This document shows, piece after piece, positions 1 to 46,990 of a DNA stretch of 56,448 bases. Both the position numbers and the translations under genes were made by a program. Source of the DNA: a virus (taxonomy: Duplodnaviria > Caudoviricetes); IMG/VR virus record IMGVR_UViG_3300046804_006442, positions 1-56,448 of that record; one strand, 5' to 3'. The notes beneath the pieces were generated by a model that made no database searches, was not told the DNA's origin, and saw only the letters and a program-made list of their open reading frames with translations. Position 1 is the first letter of the stretch. Every line of letters starts with the position of its first letter.

Positions 1-206
1 TGATAGGGTACAATACATTCGTGCCCATGATATCAGTACGCTTGCCTTATATCAGGCAGTTCAACTACAATACAGTGGTCAAGATCGACGATCATGATTT
101 TGCTGCGACCAATCCCGGAGTCTGGTGTCATAGGCTCCATGATTTACAGCGCACGGATTGCTTCACCGATTGGAGCGAATACAGCAAGGATGAGACACTG
201 AAATGA
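1..206 (+). CDS. 3' end of a conserved phage hypothetical protein (truncated by window edge)
   Basis: Frame is open back to the window start; its TGA overlaps the next ATG (ATGA 203-206). Confidence 0.6.
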   Translation, partial: IGYNTFVPMISVRLPYIRQFNYNTVVKIDDHDFAATNPGVWCHRLHDLQRTDCFTDWSEYSKDETLK

Positions 207-424
207 CACTCTGGGACGAAGAAGGTCTGTGGTTGTTTACCCCCGAAGAACTCAAGCAACTACCTGATGGGATCGAGCTCACATCGATCATGGGTGATAC
301 AGCCATCAAGGGAACCAACGAGATCGACGATGACACGAGATTTGGGCATACTGCCTGGGGCGTATATGACCCACTCAATCACAAATATGCGCATCTGTTC
401 ACTGTGTTTGGATTGAAGCGATGA
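203..424 (+). CDS. hypothetical protein
   Basis: ATGA-coupled at both ends. Confidence 0.65.
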   Translation: MTLWDEEGLWLFTPEELKQLPDGIELTSIMGDTAIKGTNEIDDDTRFGHTAWGVYDPLNHKYAHLFTVFGLKR

Positions 425-3557: not shown

Positions 3558-4388
3558 ATGAACCGTAAATTTCAACCCATATGGCCTAGCCCTCCCAAAC
3601 CAGAATTTCGTACCGATTATTTTCCGCAAGCCACCTACGACCAAGAGGAACAACCATTGTCTGACACCAATAATACCATCAACCCTACTCTGCTTCCCGA
3701 AGCATCTGTCAGTACACAAATTATCAACCGTATCAAAGCCGCGGATGGTAGATACTGGGCCGGTGACAACATCAGCCAGTGGATCCAACCCGGCGAACAC
3801 GAACGTTTGATCGACGAAGCCACCTGTGCGTTTGAACGGGTGTTAGACTGTTTGGTGATCGATCGCTACGATGATCCAAATTCGCGTGGTACTGCGCGGC
3901 GCTTGGCCAAGATGTATTTCAACGAGATCATGAGCGGACGTTACGAACCTGCTCCCAACTGCACCGCTTTTCCCAATGACAGCGAAGGTCGCTATGAGGG
4001 TATGCTGGTGGTGCGTAGTGAGATACGCAGCATGTGCAGCCACCACCATCAACCAGTATCGGGCGTGGCCTATATAGGTATCATCGCTGCCCAAAAGCTG
4101 ATCGGGCTCAGCAAATACACGCGCATCGCCCAGTGGTGTGCGCGCCGTGGGACCTTGCAGGAAGAACTCTGCAATGATATCGCCCGCGAGATCATGCGCG
4201 TCACTGACAGCGCAGATGTGGGTGTCTATATCCAGGCCACCCATGGTTGCTGCGAGAATCGTGGTATCATGGCACATAGTTCTTTGACCCAGACCACAGT
4301 GCTGTCGGGTGTGTTCAAATCCGACAGCGGGGTCAAGAAAGAGTTTATGGACAATATCAAACTGCAACAGGAGTTTGCCCCGCGATGA
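3558..4388 (+). CDS. folE: GTP cyclohydrolase I
   Basis: SMCSHH, IGLSK, RRGTLQEEL, ATHGCCENRG. Confidence 0.95.
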   Translation: MNRKFQPIWPSPPKPEFRTDYFPQATYDQEEQPLSDTNNTINPTLLPEASVSTQIINRIKAADGRYWAGDNISQWIQPGEHERLIDEATCAFERVLDCLVIDRYDDPNSRGTARRLAKMYFNEIMSGRYEPAPNCTAFPNDSEGRYEGMLVVRSEIRSMCSHHHQPVSGVAYIGIIAAQKLIGLSKYTRIAQWCARRGTLQEELCNDIAREIMRVTDSADVGVYIQATHGCCENRGIMAHSSLTQTTVLSGVFKSDSGVKKEFMDNIKLQQEFAPR

Positions 4389-4681
4389 ACAGGACCGATG
4401 AAATACTGACTATCACCCAGGAAGAATGCGCCGAGATCATCCAAGTTATCAGCAAGATATTCCGTTTTGGCATCGGGAATCAACATCTAGCCAGCAATAC
4501 AGGTACCAACGTAGATAAACTCAACCAAGAAGTAGGAGATCTCCTGGCCATGCTGGATCTCCTGCGAGAGGAAGGTATACTTGATACCGCAAAGCTGGCG
4601 GAAGCCAAACAGCGAAAGATTGCCAAGCTCAAGATTTGGTCTGATATATATAAAGATAATCAAACCAAGGACCCAACATGA
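4385..4681 (+). CDS. MazG-like NTP pyrophosphohydrolase
   Basis: QEECAEIIQ..KIFRFG..LNQEVGDLLA. Confidence 0.75.
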   Translation: MNRTDEILTITQEECAEIIQVISKIFRFGIGNQHLASNTGTNVDKLNQEVGDLLAMLDLLREEGILDTAKLAEAKQRKIAKLKIWSDIYKDNQTKDPT

Positions 4682-4863
4682 TACTACTAACCGCTTTGAT
4701 GTGCGCATTACTGGGCTACCAAGTAACCATGCCTGCAGTAGATAATGCCAAATATACCTTTACTGTTTATGAGAACCATATCGTTCGCATGAACACCCAG
4801 AACGGTACATTTGAGACCTGTGACCGAAACCTTAAGTGTGCTTCAGTACAGCAAGAGAAATAA
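4678..4863 (+). CDS. small secreted/membrane hypothetical protein
   Basis: Hydrophobic N-terminus, ATGA-coupled. Confidence 0.6.
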   Translation: MILLTALMCALLGYQVTMPAVDNAKYTFTVYENHIVRMNTQNGTFETCDRNLKCASVQQEK

Positions 4864-4868
4864 ACCAC

Positions 4869-4935
4869 AGCGGACTTGGCGTCAACCCGCTTTACGAAAT
4901 TCTGCCGCCTATGCTATAATCTAACATAGGAGAAT
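4869..4935 (+). promoter_or_regulatory. candidate cis-regulatory RNA (pseudoknot vs SD-sequestering hairpin)
   Basis: AGCGG/CCGCT stem; loop GGCG can pair with CGCC 4906-4909; CCTATG 4908-4913 pairs with CATAGG 4925-4930, covering the AGGAGA SD. Confidence 0.45.
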
Positions 4936-4939
4936 CCAC

Positions 4940-5206
4940 ATGGCAGAATTTATCGTAGAAAAGACCAAAAACGGCTATCTAAGAAAAGAGTATCGTCCAA
5001 CATATGACCCATACTGCGAAGAAACCGATTGGTTCCGTACTTTTTCGATGCTTCCAAGAAATTGCGAAGTAACCGGAGAATCTTTGCTGTTCAAACCTGC
5101 ATATTGCCTGCGACGACAGATCACTGGCTATGATTCTCATGAAACGGAAACGCATTGGCACAGCCAGCAGGGTCATGTCCTCTACCTATTGCAAGGAAAG
5201 AAATAA
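4940..5206 (+). CDS. hypothetical protein
   Basis: AGGAGA SD; TAATG coupling to queD. Confidence 0.7.
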   Translation: MAEFIVEKTKNGYLRKEYRPTYDPYCEETDWFRTFSMLPRNCEVTGESLLFKPAYCLRRQITGYDSHETETHWHSQQGHVLYLLQGKK

Positions 5207-5685
5207 TGGCAAAATATATCAGTACCAAAACATATCGACAGATCGGACCCGTGGCTTACCGCCAATGGCGCGCTGATAGTCACTGCAATCTCATACATGG
5301 TTATGCACTCAGCTTCCATTTTGAATTTGAATGTGATACCCTAGATGCCCGGAACTGGTGCATGGATTTCGGGGGTCTCAAGCCACTCAAAGAAAAACTA
5401 GAGGAATGGTTCGACCATACTCTGCTGGTAGCCGAAGATGATCCTCAGCGCGAAGAATTGCTGCGTCTAGGTAAACTGGGCCTGGCCAAGATCACCGAAG
5501 TAGAACGTACTGGCTGCGAAGGCCTGGCAGCATTCCTGTATGAATATGTCAACACCATCTTCTTGCCCATGTATGGCGCCGAAGAAGCCCGGCGCATCTG
5601 GTGCTGTAAAGTAGAGGTAAGAGAAACTGACTCAAACATGGCCATGCGAGTAGGTCATAGAGAAGATGGGGAATTCAATGAGTAA
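5206..5685 (+). CDS. queD: 6-carboxy-5,6,7,8-tetrahydropterin synthase
   Basis: SHCNLIHGY, DFGGLK, FDHTLL, CEGLA, VEVRET. Confidence 0.9.
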   Translation: MAKYISTKTYRQIGPVAYRQWRADSHCNLIHGYALSFHFEFECDTLDARNWCMDFGGLKPLKEKLEEWFDHTLLVAEDDPQREELLRLGKLGLAKITEVERTGCEGLAAFLYEYVNTIFLPMYGAEEARRIWCCKVEVRETDSNMAMRVGHREDGEFNE

Positions 5686-6523
5686 ACAGTTTGACCTAAG
5701 CCTATTGCTGGCCACCCGGGGACGCACCGACGCCCTGAGTCGCAGCGTAGCCAGCGTGTTTGAGCTAGCAGACCATCCAGAAAAGATCCAGATACTGTTT
5801 GGGTTTGATCGCGATGATGCCCAGGGCTTGGCACACTGGAATCAAGTGCTGCGGCCATGGTTGGATCAACATGGACACAACTATATCGCCATGAAGTTCG
5901 AACCCATGGGCTATACCAGTCTGCATATCTATAACAACAAGATGGCCCAACAAGCCCGTGGCGAATGGTTTGTTATCTGGAACGATGATGCTGTGATGGA
6001 GACACAGGGCTGGGATACCGAGATCCTGCGCCATCGCGACGAATTCCGTCTGCTGGCCTTCCGTACACACCAAGATCATCCCTACAGCATCTTCCCTATA
6101 TTACCGCGCCAATGGTTTGACATGTTTGGCTACATCAGTCCGCACCCCACACAGGATGGTTGGTTGAGCCAACAGGCCTATATGTTGAATATCCTGGAGC
6201 GTATCCCGGCTTGGGTCAAGCACGACCGTTATGATCTTACCGGAAACAATCTCGATGAAACGTTCCGCAATCGACGTATGTTAGAGGGGCAGCTAGATGA
6301 TCCGCGAGATTTTCATAGCCCCCAACAGAACGAACTCAGGAATAGAGATGCGGCCAAGATAGCTGAATATCTCCGCAAAGAGCGTGGACAAGACATGAGC
6401 TTCTGGGACAACATCTGGACCGGCAAACAAGATCCCTGGGAGAAGCTCAAACTCAACGATATCAATCATCAGATGATGCAGTTTGATCCACGCGATCCCT
6501 CTACTTTTCCTGGCAGTAAATAA
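5678..6523 (+). CDS. GT-A (family 2-like) glycosyltransferase
   Basis: SLLLATRGR N-terminus, DRDD, IWNDD metal motif. Confidence 0.8.
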   Translation: MSKQFDLSLLLATRGRTDALSRSVASVFELADHPEKIQILFGFDRDDAQGLAHWNQVLRPWLDQHGHNYIAMKFEPMGYTSLHIYNNKMAQQARGEWFVIWNDDAVMETQGWDTEILRHRDEFRLLAFRTHQDHPYSIFPILPRQWFDMFGYISPHPTQDGWLSQQAYMLNILERIPAWVKHDRYDLTGNNLDETFRNRRMLEGQLDDPRDFHSPQQNELRNRDAAKIAEYLRKERGQDMSFWDNIWTGKQDPWEKLKLNDINHQMMQFDPRDPSTFPGSK

Positions 6524-6526
6524 GGC

Positions 6527-8536
6527 ATGACTTATAAGATAGCCTGGGTCCAGCCCAATTTCCAGCAAGGACCCAAGGAGTTCAATGCTTTCTATCTGCC
6601 CTATTCGGCCGGTGTGATCTGGAGTTATGCCTGCACCGATGAGTGGATCCGGGAAAATTTTGAGTGTACCGAGATGGTGTGGCGCCGGGAGGCTGTAGAA
6701 CCCGTGGCTGAGAGATTGGCCCGCAATGATGTGGTGGCCTTCAGCACCTATGTCTGGAACCATCAGTACAACTATACCCTGGCACGTCGAGTCCGAGAAC
6801 TCAATCCCCGATGCTTGATAATATTCGGCGGGCCCGAACCTGCCGTCACCCAGACCGATATATTCATCGAGAATCCGTTTATGGATCTGGTGGTATGTTT
6901 TGAAGGTGAGATCACCTTCCAGCGAGTGTTGCGGGCATTTGAACAACGTAACTGGCAGGACATACCCGGGCTATTGGTAAACGTCAATGGTCAAGCAGTC
7001 AATACTGGTGCAGCACGCCGTATAGAGACCTTGGACCAAGTACCCAGTCCCTATCTCACGGGAGTGTTTGATGATATCATTCGCGACAATCCCGGCATAG
7101 AATGGAATGGCACCCTGGAGACCAATCGCGGTTGCCCGTTCCAATGCACATTTTGCGATTGGGGTAGCCTGACCTACAACAAGGTCAAACAGTTTGAACT
7201 GCAACGTGTATTCGATGAGCTGGAATGGATGGCCCAACGTCGCTGCGGATTCATATCTATCACCGATGCCAACTTTGGTATGTTTGCCGAGCGCGACAAC
7301 CTCATAGCCGACAAGATCATCGAGATACAAGAGCAGTATGGTTATCCCAAGACCTTCTCGGTGGCCTGGGCCAAGAACCAAAAGCGCGAGGTCGTAGACA
7401 TAGTCAAGAAATTGTTGGATGCTCCGGGATTCAATCAAGGTCTGACTCTCAGTGTGCAGAGCCTGGACAATGGTGTGCTGGATAATATCCGGCGCCGCAA
7501 CATGGAGATGAGCCGCTTGGAAGAAGTGTTTGAGCTGTGCGAGCAGCGCAACATACCCACCTATACCGAGCTGATCTTGGGTCTGCCCGGCGAGAGCCTG
7601 GAGAGCTGGAAGGACAATTTCTGGCGCTTGTTCCGCATGGGCAACCATACCGGACTCACAGTGTTCCAGGCTCAGCTGCTGGAAAACGCCGAGATGAACC
7701 TGGTCCAGAAACAACAGTATGATATACAAGCCCAGAGAGTCACCGACTACTTTTCGGGCAGCTACAGCAATGAGCACGTAGAAGAAGGCATCGATATCGT
7801 GATCAGCACACGAGACATGCCTTTAGAAGCCATGCTGGATGCCGAGGTGTTCAGCTGGTTCATCAATACCTGGCATATCAACGGTATCAGTACCATCGTC
7901 AGCAGATTCCTGTACAAGTATATAGGGGTAGATTACAGCGAGTTCTATTCGGATCTGTTCGATGCCTTGCAGAATGATCCTTGGCTCCTGGACGAACAAA
8001 ACGAAATCCGGAGGTATTACCATAACTGGATGACGCAGGGACGTATACAACACCCCAACATCGGTGGTATCGAGATCCATGGCTGGAACCTCATACATCG
8101 CACGGTCTTGAACATGCATGTAGAACATCAATATGAGCGTATGTTCGATTTTCTGGAAAATTTCGTGCAGCGTTACGGTATATCACCGGACATCATGCAT
8201 GACGTCATGCAGTTCCAACGCCGATATCTGGTGGTATACGATCAGATAGCAACCTATCCCAAAGAATTGACCCTGGGATATAACGTCTGGGAATATATCA
8301 CCGGGGACCAAGGGCTGCGCCGGGCGCCGGCACATTATCTCATGGATTTTCCCGAAGACAAGAGCATGAGCTTCCCGCGCTTCCTGGAACTTTTTTATTT
8401 TGCTAGACGACGTAACTTTGGAAAGACAACCGTAGAGAGAATCGACAATGAAACAGACACAACTAACATGGCACGACGTGGAACGCTACACCCAGGCGCT
8501 TTGCCGGGAAATGACCCTGGAGCAATGGCGTCCTGA
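6527..8536 (+). CDS. B12-binding domain radical SAM protein
   Basis: FSTYVWN, GGPE, FEGE, ETNRGCPFQCTFC (CxxxCxxC), DANFG, ELILGLPGE. Confidence 0.9.
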   Translation: MTYKIAWVQPNFQQGPKEFNAFYLPYSAGVIWSYACTDEWIRENFECTEMVWRREAVEPVAERLARNDVVAFSTYVWNHQYNYTLARRVRELNPRCLIIFGGPEPAVTQTDIFIENPFMDLVVCFEGEITFQRVLRAFEQRNWQDIPGLLVNVNGQAVNTGAARRIETLDQVPSPYLTGVFDDIIRDNPGIEWNGTLETNRGCPFQCTFCDWGSLTYNKVKQFELQRVFDELEWMAQRRCGFISITDANFGMFAERDNLIADKIIEIQEQYGYPKTFSVAWAKNQKREVVDIVKKLLDAPGFNQGLTLSVQSLDNGVLDNIRRRNMEMSRLEEVFELCEQRNIPTYTELILGLPGESLESWKDNFWRLFRMGNHTGLTVFQAQLLENAEMNLVQKQQYDIQAQRVTDYFSGSYSNEHVEEGIDIVISTRDMPLEAMLDAEVFSWFINTWHINGISTIVSRFLYKYIGVDYSEFYSDLFDALQNDPWLLDEQNEIRRYYHNWMTQGRIQHPNIGGIEIHGWNLIHRTVLNMHVEHQYERMFDFLENFVQRYGISPDIMHDVMQFQRRYLVVYDQIATYPKELTLGYNVWEYITGDQGLRRAPAHYLMDFPEDKSMSFPRFLELFYFARRRNFGKTTVERIDNETDTTNMARRGTLHPGALPGNDPGAMAS

Positions 8537-8996
8537 TTATGTGGTAGGACTTACTCGTGGCGGTCTGACCCCGGCCGTGATGGTCAGCCAGTATCTGGAT
8601 ATACCCATGTACGCGCTCAAGGTCAGCTTGCGTGATGCTGTAGAGGATTGCGAAAGCAATCTCTGGATGGCCGAAGAAGCATTTGGTTACGTAAACCAAG
8701 AGGACCAACAGCAAATAGGTAGCCGCTGGGATCCATATCTACGTAAGAATATCTTGGTACTAGACGACATCAATGATTCGGGGGCCACTTTCAATTGGAT
8801 CCGGGATGATTGGCAATCTAGCTGTATGCCCGCCGAGACCGAGGCCTGGAAAACGGTATGGAATCACAACGTACGATTCGCGGTATTGGTCAATAATGAG
8901 ACCAGCGGATTCAAAGATATCGATTACTCGGCCCTGACTGTGAACAAACTGGAAGATCCGCAATGGATCATCTTTCCCTGGGAACAATGGTGGTAA
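8448..8996 (+). CDS. purine phosphoribosyltransferase (Gpt/Hpt-like)
   Basis: VVGLTRGG, ILVLDDINDSGAT PRPP motif, WIIFPWE end. Confidence 0.85.
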   Translation: MKQTQLTWHDVERYTQALCREMTLEQWRPDYVVGLTRGGLTPAVMVSQYLDIPMYALKVSLRDAVEDCESNLWMAEEAFGYVNQEDQQQIGSRWDPYLRKNILVLDDINDSGATFNWIRDDWQSSCMPAETEAWKTVWNHNVRFAVLVNNETSGFKDIDYSALTVNKLEDPQWIIFPWEQWW

Positions 8997-9036
8997 AACT
9001 GTTGATTTCTCCGCGCAAGACCTATATACTTGTATC

Positions 9037-9897
9037 ATGAAAATCAAAATCTCCGAAATATTCTATTCAGCACAGGGCGAAGGTCGCTTCGTAGGTGTAC
9101 CTTCGGTATTCATGCGCACGTTCGGCTGTAACTTTACCTGCGGTGGGTTTGGTATGCCCCCAGGACAAGTCAGCCGCGAACGCGATGCAGTCAATCCCGA
9201 TCGTTATGAAACCTTCGATAGCCTGCCCTTGGTCTCCACTGGTTGTGACAGCTATGCTAGCTGGGATCCGCGCTTCAAACGATTTAGCCCCAGCCTTGAG
9301 ATCGACGAGATCGTAGCGCGTATGCTACGACTAACTCCCAACAATCGCTGGCAGCAGGCCAATGGCAATCGTGTACATCTGGTCATAACTGGTGGTGAAC
9401 CCTTGCTGGGATGGCAACGAGCCTATCCAGAATTGCTGTCACATAGCAGTATGTCAGACCTCCGGGACATCACGTTTGAGACCAACGGTACCCAGCCCTT
9501 GCATGATGCCTTGTACGATTACTTCTGGAACCGTGTGACCCTGCAGGGCCGGCGCAGGACTAACCTTACTTTCTCGGTCAGTGCCAAATTGCCGGTAAGT
9601 GGTGAGGCCTGGAGTGATGCTATATGCCCCGAGGTAGTACGCGAGTATGATAACTTGGGGCATACCTATCTCAAGTTCGTGGTAGAAAAGGCCCAGGACT
9701 TTGAGCTAGTGGATCAAGCCGTGAGCGAGTATCGAGCGGCTGGGTTCGGTGGTGAAGTCTATGTCATGCCCGTGGGTGGCGTGGTATCTGTGTATGATGG
9801 CAATCGGATCAACGTAGCCGACGAAGCCATGCGCCGTGGCTATTACTACAGCCCTAGAATACATATTGACATCTGGGGTAATGCCTGGTCAAAATAA
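9037..9897 (+). CDS. queE: 7-carboxy-7-deazaguanine synthase (radical SAM)
   Basis: ISEIFYSAQGEG, FMRTFGCNFTC...GCDS, VITGGEPL, FETNGT, SPRIH. Confidence 0.92.
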   Translation: MKIKISEIFYSAQGEGRFVGVPSVFMRTFGCNFTCGGFGMPPGQVSRERDAVNPDRYETFDSLPLVSTGCDSYASWDPRFKRFSPSLEIDEIVARMLRLTPNNRWQQANGNRVHLVITGGEPLLGWQRAYPELLSHSSMSDLRDITFETNGTQPLHDALYDYFWNRVTLQGRRRTNLTFSVSAKLPVSGEAWSDAICPEVVREYDNLGHTYLKFVVEKAQDFELVDQAVSEYRAAGFGGEVYVMPVGGVVSVYDGNRINVADEAMRRGYYYSPRIHIDIWGNAWSK

Positions 9898-17190: not shown

Positions 17191-17283
17191 GGGTGTCTTG
17201 ATGCTATGGCGTGTGCATCCCCGGACTGTAAATCCGGTCCCTCGTGGTAAACAATCGCGGTTCGAATCCGTGGACACCCACCA
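17191..17283 (+). tRNA. tRNA-Tyr(GTA)
   Basis: GGGTGTC/GACACCC acceptor, CCGGA-CTGTAAA-TCCGG, CCA. Confidence 0.88.
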
Positions 17284-17619: not shown

Positions 17620-17715
17620 GCTCCTCAGCACTCGGCGTGCGGCGCGCCCTTATAAAGCGCGGAGACCGGTCAGATGGGCTGGAACGGCAGGGTTCGAAAC
17701 CCTGGGGGAGTACCA
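17620..17715 (+). tRNA. atypical tRNA, TAT anticodon (Ile by anticodon), long variable arm
   Basis: GCTCCTC/GGGGAGT acceptor, short GCAC/GTGC D-arm, CTTATAA loop, T-arm, ACCA. Confidence 0.7.
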
Positions 17716-26185: not shown

Positions 26186-27085
26186 TAGGGGAGTTTGATC
26201 TCCTCCCGAAGCGAAAGCCTAGGGGAAGGATAAGCCTGGTGACAGGCCCAAAGCGGTAGCGTCCTACACGCCCGCGCTGGCAACAGTCCGATCAAGCAAG
26301 CCTGCTCACTGTGGTGACACAGCGATCACTGATAAGACCGGTGGTTGTAACAGCAAAGCTGGTGCGGGGGGAACGACACATATCGACTGGCCCGCAAGGG
26401 AACCAGGGTATGTGAAAAGTAACGGGTGGTGCCGACTTCCCAGCAAAACCAATCAGCTAACTGGTATGAGAAAGGGTAGTGCAAGGGTCCAAGGGGTCGC
26501 TCCCAAGGGCTGGTTGTGCAGTCGGAGTGGTTGGTGGATAGGCCGAGACCGGAGTAAAATCCGTATGCCGACGACACTGATCGCGAAAGACGTCTGAGTA
26601 GCCCGCGGGGCCAAAGGAACGTGGTGTGTTGTATCGTGTATTCCAAAAGAGTGCGCGGCAACAGGAACGGCACATCACAGTAGGTTGATATAGCTCAATG
26701 GTAGAGCAACTCCATTTAAAGGAGTCGGCTGTGGGTTTCGATACTCACTATCGATTAAAAATGCAAAGCCCGTTCCCGGTAATAACGAAAATGGCCTAAT
26801 ACTTGACACGCAAGTGAATCAAGTTACTCAAATGCCGCAAGCAGATGAGCATTGACTAGGATAGTGTCGTAAGAGTTTAGCGACTTTGAACTGCTCGCAA
26901 GGCAGACGAAACTTGAATAATCGAGTAGTTATTACTGTAACGAGAAACGCAACTCGTCAAATGCGGCCATGGTATCAGACTTACTTACCGCAAGGGAGTA
27001 AGTGGATGATGGAGGAAAGTTTCCCGCAAGGAAATTATAATCTCCTGAAGTGATACTGCGATTCTGTGTAATCTCAGCAGATTCA
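26186..27085 (+). ncRNA. GOLLD-like giant structured RNA (~900 nt)
   Basis: No + strand coding; many GCAA/GAAA-capped hairpins; internal tRNA-like module; own promoter; tRNA-array context typical of GOLLD; boundaries approximate. Confidence 0.6.
26683..26756 (+). tRNA. tRNA-like module with TTA anticodon embedded in the large RNA
   Basis: TAGCTCAATGGTAGAGC D-arm, ACTCC-ATTTAAA-GGAGT, T-like arm, no CCA. Confidence 0.6.
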
Positions 27086-27162
27086 CCTTTCCGTTATAAA
27101 TAATAGTGTAGTTCGCGGGATTGGCGTCCCCAACTACTCTAATGCTTAGACGGAGCACCAGG

Positions 27163-27729
27163 ATGTGTATTTACTGTAATACAAAAAACTACCGTAAGAT
27201 CTACGAAAACCATATCGGTCCTATTACTTTAGATTGTGATGGGCGTAGTTTAGAAATCCATCACTGTGATGGAAATCATAATAATAACCATCCAGATAAT
27301 CTCAAACTGGTGACTATACAAGAACATTATGAAATTCATCGTTCTCAAGGAGATTGGGCGGCATGTAAACTAATTTCAAGCAGAATGCGTATTTCAATTC
27401 AAGAACATAAACAGGAACTAAGTCGTGCAACAACTGAGGCAAATTTGCAAAGAGTCAAGGACGGAATTCATCCGTTTATTGGCCCAATGTTGAATCAATC
27501 TAGGATTGAAAAAGGCACTCATAACTTTTTAGGTCCCGAAAATAATAGAAAAAGAGTGATAGAAGGCAAACATAATTTTCTCGGTAAATCAAATACACAA
27601 AAGCAATTAGCAGAAGGAAAACATCCTTCTCAAAAGACTTGGAAATGTCCTTATTGTAATAAAGAAGGTCGTGGTACAGGGATATATTCAAGATATCATG
27701 GTAATAAATGTAAGTTCAAAACAATCTAG
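27163..27729 (+). CDS. HNH homing endonuclease
   Basis: AT-rich; YRKIYE, EIHHCDGNHNNNHPDNL..EH..IH; repeated G.HNF; terminal CPYC..HGNKCK. Confidence 0.85.
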   Translation: MCIYCNTKNYRKIYENHIGPITLDCDGRSLEIHHCDGNHNNNHPDNLKLVTIQEHYEIHRSQGDWAACKLISSRMRISIQEHKQELSRATTEANLQRVKDGIHPFIGPMLNQSRIEKGTHNFLGPENNRKRVIEGKHNFLGKSNTQKQLAEGKHPSQKTWKCPYCNKEGRGTGIYSRYHGNKCKFKTI

Positions 27730-30913: not shown

Positions 30914-30989
30914 GTCCCCGTAGCTCAGTGAATAGAGCGGCTCCGTCCTAAGGAGCGGGTCAGGGGTTTGAATCCTCTCGGGGACGCCA
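30914..30989 (+). tRNA. tRNA-Arg(CCT)
   Basis: GCTCC-GTCCTAA-GGAGC, CCA. Confidence 0.92.
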
Positions 30990-30995
30990 GTATAT

Positions 30996-31072
30996 CCGAG
31001 TATAGCGCAGCCAGGTAGCGTGCCTGTTTCGGGAACAGGAGGTCGTGAGTTCGAATCTCACTACTCGGACCA
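30996..31072 (+). tRNA. tRNA-Pro(CGG)
   Basis: CCTGT-TTCGGGA-ACAGG, CCA. Confidence 0.93.
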
Positions 31073-31077
31073 TGAGA

Positions 31078-31325
31078 ATTGACATCTGACCTATCGCTGC
31101 GATGCGGTTTGTCGTAGAGGAAGTTCAGGGCTGCCACCGAGAACGTATGGGAGACGCGAGTCGGTTGAACCAGCGTGATATGGGCAGCAAGCCAAACAGA
31201 ACCAGGGAATTCTCGGCCTATTGGTTCGGGTTGGTGCACCCGTGATCCGCTGTGAGGCGGGGAGGACAGTGTTTACTGTAGATGAATGATAGGATAAAAC
31301 AGAACCCTGACTACAGGATGTCAAT
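31078..31325 (+). ncRNA. rnpB: minimal RNase P RNA
   Basis: P1 ATTGACATC/GATGTCAAT; P2 CCTATC/GATAGG; CR-I GAGGAAGTTCAGGGC pairing with CR-V AACAGAACCCTGACTA (P4); GCAGCAAG; CR-IV AGATGAATGA. Confidence 0.8.
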
Positions 31326-31337
31326 ATATACATGCAG

Positions 31338-31414
31338 GCCCCGGTGACGGAATTGGTATACGTGTCGGACTCAAAATCCGAATTGTGTGGGTTCGAGTCC
31401 CACCTGGGGCACCA
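31338..31414 (+). tRNA. tRNA-Leu(CAA), short variable loop
   Basis: TCGGA-CTCAAAA-TCCGA, ACCA. Confidence 0.9.
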
Positions 31415-34501: not shown

Positions 34502-35173
34502 ATGAAACGCCAGATAGAAATACGTGCTGCCGAAGGCGGCGAAGACAGTCGGTTGTTTGTGCAGGACCTTGCCCAGGCCTATATCCGCCTGGCCCAGCGA
34601 GTGGGCTGAACAGCTCGCCCCGTGGACCAACGCCCAGGTGAATCACATATCCTGGTAGAAGGTCAGGATCTGCGGGGACTAGACAACGAACCCGGTGGGC
34701 ATCGCATACAGCGAGTACCACCCACCGAACGCCGGGGCCGTGTGCATACCAGCACAGTCACAGTGGCCGTGATAGACCCGGCCCGACCCCAGGTCACCAT
34801 ACGCGAACAAGATCTCGACATCGAATGGTATTCGGGTACCGGTGCCGGGGGTCAATATCGCAACAAACATCAGAATAGCTGCCGTATCCGGCACAGACCC
34901 ACCGGTATCCAGGCCACTGCCCAGTGCCGCAGCCGGGAGAACAGCCTAGCCGAAGCCAAAACTGCGTTATCTGCGCGGGTGCAGGCCGCTGTACAGGGCC
35001 AGCATGATCAGGACCTGGCCAGAGATCGGCGCCAGCAGGTGGGGTCAGGTCAGCGCGGGGACAAGATACGCACCTATCGTTTCCAGGATGATCGGGTGCA
35101 GGATCATGTTACCGGGCGGCGGGCGCGAGTCACGGATGTGATGCGTGGGCAGATCGATCTCTTATGGCCCTAA
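34502..35173 (+). CDS. class I peptide chain release factor (RF1-like, lacking domain 1) with in-frame TGA at codon 36
   Basis: AGGAGA SD + ATG; IEIRAAEGGEDSRLF..AY..G*..GGHRIQRVPPTERRGRVHTS..GAGGQ..KIRTYRF; TGA 34607-34609 in the same frame. Confidence 0.85.
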
Positions 35174-40048: not shown

Positions 40049-40363
40049 ATGACTAACGAATACACTGAACAAGACCGCGCCTGCGTCAACTGCCGTCATT
40101 TCCGACGCCGCTGGAATCCCATCGCCTTGATCGATACTGTCATCAGCGATGGCACCATGCATTACCGTTGCCAATTAAATGGCGTCTCGGAATCTATAAA
40201 TCCCATTACTGGGCGCAAGACCATAACCATCAGGGATCAATCTTGTAAGGACATGCGCAGCAGTCGTCATTATTGTGGACGCGAAGGTGATCATTGGCAT
40301 CCCAGCGAACAGTTTATGCGACGCAAAGAGAACCTGCTCAAGGTCATAAAAAATGCCCGATAA
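40049..40363 (+). CDS. Cys-rich hypothetical protein
   Basis: CVNCRHF..C..C..CGREG..W. Confidence 0.7.
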   Translation: MTNEYTEQDRACVNCRHFRRRWNPIALIDTVISDGTMHYRCQLNGVSESINPITGRKTITIRDQSCKDMRSSRHYCGREGDHWHPSEQFMRRKENLLKVIKNAR

Positions 40364-41072
40364 CAAACCCATCGCAGTATTCCGGCTAGATCCCAGCGAT
40401 GGTCCGGGCTATCTTGGCACGTTCTTGACTGCCAAGAATCTGCCCTGGCAGCTGATCTGCGTGGACCAAGGCGATGCCATCCCCCGAGATGTGACCCGCT
40501 TTGCCGGTCTGGTATTCATGGGCGGTGCCATGAGCGTCAACGATGATCTGCCCTGGATCGAGCCGGTATTGGATCGGATCCAGGCAGCAGTGGCCACCGA
40601 CGTCCCGGTCATGGGACATTGCCTGGGCGGTCAGCTGCTATCGCGGGCCTTGGGCGGTGCTGTCACCGCCAATCCAGTCCAGGAGATCGGTTGGCACAAG
40701 ATCCGGATCGCCGACAACGATGCCGCACGCCATTGGTTCGGGCACGTGGGTGACGGGTTCTTGTCGTTCCACTGGCACAACGAGACCTTCAGCATACCCG
40801 CAGGTGCCACAGCCATAATGTCGAGCGCACATTGCGCTAATCAAGGCTTTGCCCTGGGACCGCATCTTGGCATGCAGTGCCATATCGAGATGCAGCCGTT
40901 TATGGTGCTGGAATGGTGTGAATCTGAAGCCAGCTCGCTCTTATGCGAAGCACAGGGTGCGAACATCCAGACTCCTGACCAGATGCGAGACCAGTTGGTG
41001 GATAGGATCACCCAATTGCATCTGGTGGCCGATGGTGTCTATGAGCAATGGATCAAAGGACTCAGGTGCTGA
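40353..41072 (+). CDS. class I glutamine amidotransferase
   Basis: MGGAMS, GHCLGGQ, EIGW, HWH.E, QCHIE. Confidence 0.9.
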   Translation: MPDNKPIAVFRLDPSDGPGYLGTFLTAKNLPWQLICVDQGDAIPRDVTRFAGLVFMGGAMSVNDDLPWIEPVLDRIQAAVATDVPVMGHCLGGQLLSRALGGAVTANPVQEIGWHKIRIADNDAARHWFGHVGDGFLSFHWHNETFSIPAGATAIMSSAHCANQGFALGPHLGMQCHIEMQPFMVLEWCESEASSLLCEAQGANIQTPDQMRDQLVDRITQLHLVADGVYEQWIKGLRC

Positions 41073-41685: not shown

Positions 41686-42897
41686 ATGACTATCAAACAA
41701 ATAATCGGCAACGGCGTTACCGCCGACGGCAGATACGAACTGCGAGTGCCGGTAAAGATCTGGACCAATGACATCGAGCCCACGGCTCTTGAACAGGCTC
41801 GTAAGCTGGCTCAGCTGCCCTTTATCCACAAGAACGGCGTGGCGCTTATGCCCGACGTGCATGCTGGTATTGGCTCTACTGTGGGCTCAGTGATCGCGAC
41901 TGAACATGCTGTGATCCCGGCGGCTGTGGGTGTGGATATTGGCTGCGGTATGAACGCGATCCGCACCAGCCTGCGCGCCGAGGACTTGCCCGACAGCCTG
42001 CGCACTGTGCGTCTGCAGATTGAGCGCGACGTGCCCCTGGGCGCGGGTGGTGCTCACAAAGAAGACTTGGCGGTGTTTCCGCAGCCCTTGGGTACCCGGG
42101 CTCGCCAACTGTTCGCAAAGCATCCCAACTTGGAAACCCGGCAATGGCATCGCCAGCTGGGCACGTTAGGTTCGGGCAACCACTTTATCGAGCTGTGCCT
42201 GGACGAAGCGGGCGCGGTGTGGATCATGCTGCACTCGGGTAGCCGTGGTGTTGGTAACACGATCGGCCGTCACTTTATCGATCAAGCCAAGCGCCTGATG
42301 GAACGGTTTTTCATTACGCTGCCGGATCGCGACTTGGCTTATTTGCCGGATGGCACCCAGGAATTTGCTGACTACATCGAAGCGATTGGTTGGGCGCAGG
42401 ATTATGCTCGCGAAAACCGTGCTATCATGATGACTGCGGTGATCGCGTCGCTGCGCCGGCATATCCCGGTAGAGTTTGAGCTGACGTCTGAAGCGGTCAA
42501 TGCACATCATAACTACCTGGAGATCGAGAACCACTTTGGCACCAACATGTATATCACTCGCAAGGGTGCTATCCGTGCGCGTCGAGGTGATCTTGGTATT
42601 ATCCCGGGCAGCATGGGCGCGAAGAGCTACATCGTGCAGGGCCTGGGCGATCCGGAATCCTACTGCTCGTGTAGCCATGGTGCGGGTCGTAAGATGTCGC
42701 GCACTGAAGCGAACCGGCGGTTTACTGTAGAGGACTTGAAGGCGCAGACTGCGGGTGTGGAATGCAACAAGACGTCCGCGGTTATCGACGAGATTCCCAG
42801 TGCATACAAGGACATCGATGTGGTCATGGAGAACCAGCGGGACTTGGTTCGTGTGGTGCATACCCTGAAGCAGGTTATGTGCGTCAAAGGTGCGTAA
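41686..42897 (+). CDS. rtcB: RtcB RNA ligase
   Basis: MPDVHAG, VGVDIGCG, LGSGNHFIE, HSGSRG, HHNY, RKGA, PGSMG, SHGAGR, DEIPSAYK. Confidence 0.96.
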   Translation: MTIKQIIGNGVTADGRYELRVPVKIWTNDIEPTALEQARKLAQLPFIHKNGVALMPDVHAGIGSTVGSVIATEHAVIPAAVGVDIGCGMNAIRTSLRAEDLPDSLRTVRLQIERDVPLGAGGAHKEDLAVFPQPLGTRARQLFAKHPNLETRQWHRQLGTLGSGNHFIELCLDEAGAVWIMLHSGSRGVGNTIGRHFIDQAKRLMERFFITLPDRDLAYLPDGTQEFADYIEAIGWAQDYARENRAIMMTAVIASLRRHIPVEFELTSEAVNAHHNYLEIENHFGTNMYITRKGAIRARRGDLGIIPGSMGAKSYIVQGLGDPESYCSCSHGAGRKMSRTEANRRFTVEDLKAQTAGVECNKTSAVIDEIPSAYKDIDVVMENQRDLVRVVHTLKQVMCVKGA

Positions 42898-46482: not shown

Positions 46483-46617
46483 ATGCCAGATGATGATGTA
46501 AGAGCCAGAGTCAGCGTACAAACACCTTGGTTCAAATTGTTTGTGGACCGGATAGACTGGAAAGAGGTCGTGGTAGTAGGCATGGTGTTGTTGACCATAG
46601 TTTATTTGGTCCGGTAA
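46483..46617 (+). CDS. small membrane protein (44 aa)
   Basis: GGGAG SD; hand-translated, C-terminal TM segment. Confidence 0.5.
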   Translation: MPDDDVRARVSVQTPWFKLFVDRIDWKEVVVVGMVLLTIVYLVR

Positions 46618-46910
46618 GAATTGCTGTATGAAGCAGATCCAAAGACGGACAAGACAGGGGTTCGACTCCCCTCCAGTCCACCAGAAAGTATACTGCATAG
46701 GTTTTTGCGGATGGCGCCATCCAACACAATTCAGTAGTATACTTTCTAATGGGCTGGTCATGGTATCGATTGACGGACAAGTAGACGAGTGGACAGCAGG
46801 GTAGGCGAAGACCCTAAATCTAGCGAAACTATAGACGCTAACGACGATCTATTCGCACAGGCCGCGTAAAACCGGCTGCTGAGGCAGGAATGCCAAGAAA
46901 CAGAAAATCC
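46618..46910 (+). ncRNA. ssrA: two-piece (circularly permuted) tmRNA, tag ANDDLFAQAA
   Basis: T-arm + CCAGTCCACCA (ends 46683) precede GGGCTGG (46751; G3-U70); tag ORF 46837-46869; intervening long stem. Confidence 0.9.
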
Positions 46911-46912
46911 AG

Positions 46913-46940
46913 AAATAGGCTCTTCGGAGCCTATTTTTTT
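46913..46940 (+). terminator. intrinsic terminator
   Basis: AAATAGGCTC-TTCG-GAGCCTATTTTTTT. Confidence 0.9.
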
Positions 46941-46990
46941 GACAACAGATCCCGTGGATAGTAAAATTGTTCTTTGAGAAAGGAAATCTT

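Follow-up and report, generated by a model that had tools for sequence, protein, structure and literature searches.

A mini RNase P RNA of bacterial class A descent within the tRNA gene array of a huge freshwater phage

The gene for the RNA of ribonuclease P (RNase P) is regarded as a hallmark of cells and organelles, and to our knowledge it is otherwise known only from these. Natural reduction of its size has taken place in small, fast-evolving genomes: organelles possess reduced RNase P RNAs, and the RNase P RNA of Mycoplasma fermentans is the smallest known from bacteria. In all these cases the reduced molecule is the sole RNase P RNA of its compartment or cell. Here we describe a reduced copy that is, in contrast, accessory and exists alongside the host enzyme. 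It occupies positions 31078-31325 (+ strand) of IMG/VR record IMGVR_UViG_3300046804_006442, which comes from a huge freshwater phage. The full virus record of 56,448 bases is referred to as the window; its CheckV completeness is 16%, making it a fragment of a genome of about 350 kb. We are nearly certain that the element is a genuine phage-borne mini RNase P RNA and that it is under selection. It is derived from bacterial type A and keeps the complete catalytic domain. Its homology, selected structure, phage family and genomic setting, as well as the absence of rnpA, are established by the data presented here.

The described system most similar to the phage RNA is the bacterial class A RNase P RNA (rnpB or M1 RNA, Rfam family RF00010). 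Both have helices P1-P5, P15/P16 with a GGU loop, P6, a P4 helix with bulged U, and conserved regions (CR) I and V together with J5/15 and J18/2. Chemistry and protein partner are presumably shared as well. The canonical P6 is about 4 bp long, the phage P6 7 bp. Unlike the 367-position class A model, the phage RNA has 248 nt, with P7-P14 and the T-loop binding site shrunk to 39 nt; it lacks a separate P17 and has an extra hairpin between P15 and P18. The phage gene is viral and lies inside a tRNA array rather than standing alone. Two class A features are missing: a score above the Rfam gathering cut-off and the specificity domain (S-domain) P7-P14 with CR-II and CR-III. Class B RNAs have no P6 and use an L5.1/L15.1 contact instead (PMC5839562). 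The phage RNA differs from them in its covarying P6 and in its best match within the Rfam clan, which is bacterial class A.

Loss of the S-domain has two precedents. Firstly, archaeal type T RNAs of Thermoproteaceae keep the catalytic domain (C-domain) with the universal P4, J2/4 and J15/2 positions, lack most of the S-domain and are missed by the standard Rfam model (PMC3579882), all of which applies to the phage RNA too. Their P6 has been modelled as present (PMC5839562). Type T RNAs, however, have a 3-bp P2, a 2-nt P5/P15 linker, no P18, an archaeal-type C-domain and archaeal proteins (PMC3579882), whereas in the phage RNA P2 has 6 bp, the linker 3 nt, a hairpin occupies the P18 position and the best match is bacterial. 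The label "type-T-like", given to the RNA in a preliminary description based on the sequence, is therefore apt only as an analogy, the reduced S-domain being a trait in common and no evidence of membership. Phage and type T RNAs resemble each other by convergence, having undergone this reduction independently; natural loss of the S-domain would thus have happened repeatedly, in phages and in archaeal type T. Secondly, the engineered Eco CP RPR, made from E. coli RNA, is a bacterial type A catalytic domain without S-domain, and the elements it requires are kept in the phage RNA (PMC5839562). In contrast to this man-made molecule, the phage RNAs are natural and selected, have a longer P6 and retain a small P7-like stub.

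The identification rests on a permissive Rfam scan of positions 31060-31345, in which RF00010 matched with 61.8 bits and an E value of 9.1e-19. Model positions 1-367 aligned end to end and untruncated to 31078-31329. The covariance-model search proposed in the preliminary description thus gave a significant match, albeit one below the family gathering cut-off of 100 bits. The score falls short because a few dozen bases stand in for about 140 S-domain model positions (roughly 75-214). When the terminal helix was searched for automatically, the RNA ends came out at 31078 and 31325, in agreement with the preliminary description, and the window contains one copy only (nhmmer with the family profile: 195 bits, 31079-31323). 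The same description had reported an RNase P RNA homolog of about 250 nt between phage tRNA genes and devoid of most of the S-domain, and this proved correct: the RNA of 248 nt begins 5 nt past tRNA-Pro(CGG), stops 12 nt ahead of tRNA-Leu(CAA), and has a stub of 39 nt at the place of the missing domain. The four conserved blocks quoted there and the P1, P2 and P4 pairings are present as well (Table 1).

That the fold is under selection follows from comparison with relatives. When given ten sequences, RNAalifold predicts P1, P3, P4, P5, a P7-like stem, P15 and P16 unprompted, with compensatory changes in 26 of 52 pairs. For a pair count we projected the helices of the window RNA, pseudoknots included, on a plain MAFFT alignment of 32 distinct sequences. 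Standard pairs fill 86.4% of 1710 cells as opposed to 62.0% after shuffling, and none of 500 shuffles reached the observed value. The covariation score is 0.577, compared with 0.172 in shuffled data; sliding the partners by 1-3 columns gives no more than 0.146. Of the 56 pairs, 45 change on both sides. The lower percentages of individual helices in Table 1 include visible MAFFT shifts.

An independent set of 108 loci was collected only by a pattern of the 3' half (J18/2 plus CR-V). GAGGAR occurs within 340 nt upstream in 93 of them, and in 84 a perfect 6-bp P4 complement lies at fixed offset from GAGGAR, realized by 15 sequence combinations; the rest consists of 4 loci with five of six P4 pairs, 5 with two or fewer and 15 without CR-I. 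If P4 partners are shuffled among loci, perfect helices number 26.0 on average and 38 at most in 1000 trials. Together with the 98.8% of paired cells in the alignment, this means that P4 is conserved in homologs, one of the points on which the preliminary description had made its assignment depend. Both the P4 covariation and the counts in the 108 loci use a 6-bp register pairing 31125 with 31310, equivalent to the 3+5 register of Table 1. The distance from CR-I to J18/2 in this set is 117-275 nt with a median of 155, so the window RNA, with 161, is a typical member.

The P6 pseudoknot was tested without alignment on the 80 distinct sequences (from 140 collected) that contain all anchors. The P6 strand forms on average 6.44 bp with the P16 loop of its own molecule and 5.15 bp with loops of other members (maximum 5.47 in 200 shuffles), and 61 distinct duplex sequences occur across the 80 members. 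Natural variation adds minor support. Near-identical DNA is present in aquatic metagenomes from other studies, and contigs from two of them (X3, X5) span the RNA with 1-2% differences. The change 31270 U>C occurs together with 31275 A>G (X3, X20) and turns the closing pair of the P18-position hairpin from U-A to C-G; other variants fall in its loop (31271-31272) or in the linker between P4 and P1 (31314, 31315). At this low depth, the variants spare the conserved cores. Among public sequencing runs none of RNA was listed as holding this DNA; two of the runs (X19, X20) are labelled "METAGENOMIC RNA-Seq" but are probably DNA, with patchy cover of coding and non-coding parts.

The anatomy of the RNA is given in Table 1. 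In P4 the bulged nucleotide is U31125 (U48); U31124 (U47) could equally bulge, while U48 gives the canonical layout of 3 bp, U and 5 bp, as in the covariance-model alignment of CR-I. The GGU of L15 pairs with the 3'-CCA of tRNA in type A enzymes. In the phage family GGGU is present in 32 of 32 sequences and GGGUU in 28, and this block played no role in choosing sequences. J18/2 positions A203, G204, A209 and U210 are likewise invariant among the 32. The extra hairpin between P15 and P18, which we take to occupy the place of P15.1 in type B RNAs, is a putative kink-turn: its sequence fits the consensus of a 2-bp C stem, 3-nt bulge, tandem G.A/A.G, stem and GNRA loop. By eye, the same layout is seen in 7 of the 32 aligned members (the window RNA, L018, L054, L064, L088, L150 and L080). 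Relatives vary in the element at the P18 position or lack it, L015 being one without a hairpin, and P8, the docking site for the P18 loop, is absent.

Table 1. Features of the mini RNase P RNA and of the surrounding window (RNA position 1 = 31078)
Feature	Window position	RNA position	Strand	Remarks
Whole mini RNase P RNA gene	31078..31325	1-248	+	248 nt; ends set by P1 helix
P1	31078..31087 / 31316-31325	1-10 / 239-248	+	10 bp; 80.9% of cells paired; all 10 pairs covary
P2	31090..31095 (CCUAUC) / 31288-31293 (GAUAGG)	13-18 / 211-216	+	6 bp; 90-98% paired; 6/6 pairs change both sides
P3 hairpin	31097..31117	20-25 / 35-40	+	6 bp, 9-nt loop; 98.0% paired; 5/6 pairs covary
CR-I / J3-4 and P4 5' strand (GAGGAAGUUCAGGG)	31117..31130	CR-I from 40	+	aligned to Rfam consensus GAGGAAAGUCCGGG
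P4	31122-31124 + 31126-31130 / 31305-31312	45-47, 49-53 / 228-235	+	3+5 bp around bulged U; 98.8% paired; 3 covarying pairs
P5	31131..31135 / 31183-31187	54-58 / 106-110	+	87.4% paired; 2 pairs covary
P6 pseudoknot	31137..31143 (CCGAGAA) / 31210-31216 (UUCUCGG)	60-66 / 133-139	+	7 bp, 3' strand in P16 loop; 64-80% paired
Specificity-domain stub	31144..31182	67-105	+	39 nt in place of ~140 RF00010 positions; ~33 nt aligned
P7-like stem in stub	31144-31145, 31148-31150 / 31170-31172, 31174-31175		+	RNAalifold; 68.1% paired on MAFFT columns
Stub hairpin	31153-31162		+	3 bp, GCGA loop
J5/15 block (GCAGCAAGCC)	31184..31193		+	aligned to Rfam consensus GgaGCAAggcc
J5/15 linker CAA	31188-31190	111-113	+	3 nt
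P15	31191-31193 / 31233-31235	114-116 / 156-158	+	94.8% paired; 3/3 pairs covary
P16 arm	31199..31227 (31199-31204 / 31222-31227)	122-127 / 145-150	+	6 bp; 88.5% paired; 6/6 covary
L15 loop GGGUU	31228..31232	151-155	+	contains GGU
Extra hairpin between P15 and P18	31239..31265	162-188	+	CC / CGU bulge / tandem G.A, A.G / 6-bp stem / GUGA loop; read from sequence
P18-position hairpin	31266..31279	189-202	+	5 bp, GUUU loop
J18/2 (CR-IV) AGAUGAAU	31280..31287	203-210	+	aligned to Rfam consensus AGAugAAUG
CR-V / J2-4 and P4 3' strand (AACAGAACCCUGACUA)	31298..31313	221-236	+	aligned to Rfam consensus ACAGAACCCGGCUUA
Block of preliminary description GAGGAAGTTCAGGGC	31117-31131		+	
Block of preliminary description GCAGCAAG	31184-31191		+	
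Block of preliminary description AGATGAATGA	31280-31289		+	
Block of preliminary description AACAGAACCCTGACTA	31298-31313		+	
Upstream tRNA-Pro(CGG)	30996..31072		+	CCA at 3' end; 5-nt spacer to RNA
Downstream tRNA-Leu(CAA)	31338..31414		+	12-nt leader starting at RNA 3' end
7-deazaguanine pathway enzymes	3558-9897 and 40353-41072		+	GTP cyclohydrolase I, QueD-like PTPS, QueE-like radical SAM protein, glutamine amidotransferase
Long Aragorn "tRNA-Tyr" call	17620-17715		+	96 nt; anticodon AUA
Long Aragorn "tRNA-Tyr" call	17191-17283		+	93 nt; anticodon GUA
GOLLD RNA (RF02032)	26621-27080		+	191.4 bits, cut-off 150
tRNA-like element inside GOLLD	26683-26757			anticodon UUA; no encoded CCA
HNH / intron-like endonuclease gene	27121-27729		+	directly after GOLLD RNA
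Release-factor-like protein	34622-35173		+	short (183 aa), PCRF and RF-1 domains
RtcB RNA ligase	41686-42897		+	full, 421 bits
Two-piece (permuted) tmRNA	46576-46960		+	tag ANDDLFAQAA

The RNA belongs to a family of phage relatives. A blastn search of cultured phages with the window RNA gave one match, Stenotrophomonas phage vB_SmaS-DLP_6, where the copy lies in an unannotated 258-nt gap between a coding sequence and tRNA-Arg within a tRNA cluster. Though plainly homologous, it escapes Rfam detection even at E <= 1. The divergent members L092, L080 and L077 retrieved no further carriers among cultured phages. In viral contigs, a 16-mer from J5/15 found 74 loci, of which 13 were accepted by an nhmmer profile built from ten hand-checked members. 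The phage-type CR-I pattern hit at least 118 viral loci, with 29 members among the matches listed, and at least 120 loci in prokaryote genomes, with a single member among the matches listed; no viral contig matched a pattern that joined two motifs. Setting aside 8 incomplete copies and 5 identical ones left 31 distinct relatives of full length (192-344 nt), on contigs from a few kb to 494 kb, some of which have terminal repeats and are rated 100% complete.

No member reached the Rfam cut-off in one scan of 20 member loci and another of 15 loci. Annotation pipelines in present use therefore overlook these genes, the DLP_6 record being an example; a covariance model made for the family would mend this. 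Even the largest members (L137, L088, L150 and L080, 256-344 nt) score only 48.6-68.5 bits with RF00010, and since those of 341-344 nt are also below the cut-off, they are not simply full-size bacterial RNAs. These four have a more bacterial-looking J5/7-P7 and longer insertions in the S-domain region, and they may be intermediates of S-domain loss or secondary expansions. The only member among the matches listed from prokaryote genomes (L284/L316, G005:C90) lies on a 546-kb contig in a metagenome-assembled genome labelled Bacteriovoracaceae. RF00010 has no match at all in that assembly. The 20 kb around the RNA hold mostly ORFans and a ribosome recycling factor gene, with a tRNA-like match directly before the RNA; the contig may be a huge phage mis-binned as bacterium.

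Several observations weigh against a genuine and functional RNase P RNA. An Rfam scan at the gathering threshold yields no RNase P match in the window. The single-sequence folding energy is ordinary, with z -1.05 on the + strand (29 of 200 shuffles at least as stable) and -1.84 on the minus strand; neither strand is distinctive, and thermodynamics alone would not flag the RNA. The pair statistics carry a bias, for the P1 ends of relatives were set where complementarity was greatest. Sequences were collected or filtered by means of CR-I, J5/15 and CR-V (full-length relatives were picked with a CR-V regular expression), so the invariance of these motifs is partly built in. Some copies are truncated: L030/L072 lack the whole 5' part (P1 to the 5' strand of P4), and L052/L065 end after J18/2, with an open reading frame (ORF) beginning at the break. 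Such decayed copies imply that the gene is dispensable in some lineages. Finally, the phage RNA has lost the T-loop-binding part of the enzyme. In E. coli, the RNA deprived of its S-domain and acting alone cleaves a model substrate almost 500-fold less well (PMC5839562), so the phage RNA may be weakly active without a helper.

For two of the truncated copies other explanations were considered. A split gene was rejected for L030, as the complete 436-kb phage genome behind it has no CR-I motif anywhere. For L052 an insertion was rejected, since a distance of 1.3 kb from it contains no CR-V. We regard the two copies as remnants left by truncation.

Truncated copies and a score under the Rfam cut-off are what one would expect if the RNA were a decaying, functionless relic of host rnpB, captured by chance with tRNA genes. 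We consider this very improbable, as compensatory changes maintain every helix over 32 divergent sequences and P4 in 84 of 108 independent loci, members share a clean loss of the S-domain, blocks conserved in all RNase P RNAs are undamaged, and the family extends from 45-kb contigs to genomes of more than 490 kb plus a cultured T4-like phage. The idea that there is no RNA gene, only a minus-strand coding stretch or a chance resemblance, deserves hardly any credence. It could appeal to two mechanical minus-strand ORFs that overlap the RNA (30925-31239 and 31091-31333, 104 and 80 aa) and to blastp matches between such antisense ORFs of different phages. These matches, however, result from conservation of the RNA sequence; neither ORF matches a Pfam family, one of them overlaps two tRNA genes, and neither the covariance-model E value nor base-pair covariation is expected of coding sequence.

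The genomic setting is rich in tRNA genes. The window contains 42 tRNA genes and a transfer-messenger RNA (tmRNA), every one on the + strand, and 41 of the 42 tRNA genes encode 3'-CCA, the exception being a tRNA-like element within the GOLLD RNA. Same-strand tRNAs lie within 450 nt of the RNA in 49 of the 84 unbiased members (107 in total, as against none on the opposite strand), and in 40 members a tRNA is directly adjacent. For 14 of the first 31 relatives the distance to a tRNA is no more than 40 nt, mostly 0-7 nt. These counts for family members are lower bounds, as Aragorn missed tRNAs seen by Rfam. The RNA shares its genomic module with the tRNA arrays, tmRNA and GOLLD of large phages, but while those are substrates or RNAs of unknown role, it would be the enzyme maturing them. 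The suggestion of the preliminary description that it might tolerate atypical T and D arms in this array finds little support: the T-loop motif TTCRANY is canonical and at the expected place in 32 of the 42 window tRNAs, and most of the other ten deviate at one position.

The absence of rnpA noted in the preliminary description is real, with no match of the RnpA family (PF00825) in the window's record. Nor was there any in five carrier records, namely the complete DLP_6 genome and four records rated 90-100% complete, while the same search detected rnpA in 10 of 14 control genomes. We think it reasonably probable that the RNA is catalytic and matures phage pre-tRNAs in dependence on RnpA; its transcription, processing, RnpA use and catalysis we infer. 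In this model the RNA would be transcribed as one unit of a tRNA polycistron, as suggested by adjacent same-strand tRNAs and by the lack of promoter- or terminator-like sites on the + strand at its flanks in the window. Upstream it would be released by 3' trimming of tRNA-Pro, downstream by RNase P, which would cut where tRNA-Leu begins. The freed RNA would then join RnpA of the host, proposed as partner because carrier phages encode none, and the resulting RNase P would strip 5' leaders from CCA-bearing phage pre-tRNAs. In this way it might add to, or outlast, the RNase P capacity of the host during infection.

What is known of reduced enzymes is consistent with such activity. Catalysis by the C-domain alone depends on the P15-17 region and a P6-like interaction, whereas P18 is of little importance in this context (PMC5839562). 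In the phage RNAs P6 is not only retained but longer, P15/P16 is present together with its GGU loop, and the P18 region is an optional part. A degenerate S-domain in RNase P RNA is compatible with cellular life, as archaeal type T RNAs demonstrate (PMC3579882). Given the almost 500-fold loss of the E. coli C-domain on a model substrate (PMC5839562), the phage RNA probably needs a helper, most simply host RnpA.

The same absence of phage RnpA would also suit a non-catalytic mimic, which sequesters host RnpA or pre-tRNAs and so re-routes or throttles host tRNA maturation. The kept regions also contact the protein in bacterial holoenzymes. The strong drop in activity upon S-domain loss (PMC5839562) fits a mimic too. 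We nevertheless hold it distinctly unlikely, given that nucleotides for chemistry and docking are kept (the bulged U, covarying P4, L15 GGU in 32 of 32 sequences, J5/15, J18/2 and P6) and that 42 tRNA genes raise rather than lower the need of a phage for RNase P activity.

A further alternative, and a rather unlikely one, is an RNase P RNA whose job has changed. Alone or with an unrecognised phage protein, it would be catalytic on substrates other than, or beyond, ordinary pre-tRNAs, such as the tmRNA precursor, the tRNA-like element in GOLLD, odd tRNAs, or the polycistron from which it releases itself. The S-domain of only 39 nt and the lack of RnpA in carriers are in line with this, as is the presence in the window of tmRNA, of GOLLD with its tRNA-like element and of ten tRNAs off the TTCRANY motif; a longer P6 and the extra kink-turn-like hairpin could replace lost tertiary contacts. 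Yet six carrier phages have no neighbouring protein in common over about 4 kb, the majority of the tRNAs are canonical and CCA-encoding, and many family loci have no GOLLD or tmRNA in view. The invariant CCA-binding GGU loop, too, points to ordinary pre-tRNA substrates.

A bolder proposal can also be made, to which we give somewhat less than an even chance. The phage RNAs could represent a virus-specific structural class of RNase P ribozyme, active without the domain that reads the T-loop and shaped by a long P6 and, in this phage, a kink-turn hairpin. It would be excised by tRNA processing, with its 3' end made by RNase P, and it would free phage tRNA maturation from expression of host rnpB.

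A widespread phage family of mini RNase P RNAs is apparently undescribed in print. Outside subscription-only journals and preprint supplements, we found no paper in which an RNase P RNA encoded by a phage or other virus is described. By term look-up, a 2024 review of RNase P (PMC11143913) describes no phage or viral RNase P RNA, and the DLP6 genome paper (PMC5349666) mentions neither RNase P nor ribozyme. With a conserved, streamlined version in large phages, and in many of them, the virus-encoded parts of the translation apparatus would come to include a ribozyme. On the bolder proposal above, members of 192-250 nt would be among the smallest natural bacterial-type RNase P RNAs. The range of 192-344 nt would offer a natural series of minimal ribozymes for gauging contributions of the S-domain, P6 and P18. 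Since DLP_6 and its Stenotrophomonas host are in culture, the function can be tested directly in this pair.

The window has other features of note (Table 1). The release-factor-like protein and the RtcB RNA ligase are encoded in the same tRNA-rich module, and RNase P RNA, tmRNA, 42 tRNAs, RtcB and the release-factor-like protein make an unusually complete toolkit for RNA maturation and rescue. Among tmRNA families the betaproteobacterial one is the best match of the window tmRNA (122.5 bits), which may hint at the host group. GTP cyclohydrolase I, the QueD-like and QueE-like proteins and the glutamine amidotransferase constitute a 7-deazaguanine (queuosine/archaeosine-type) pathway, which some phages use for modification of DNA or tRNA. 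ThyX is encoded as well, and 20 of the 42 window ORFs tested match PHROG phage families. Eight of the 42 tRNAs called by Aragorn have no Rfam match, and neither of the two long tRNA-Tyr calls has an Rfam tRNA match at cut-off.

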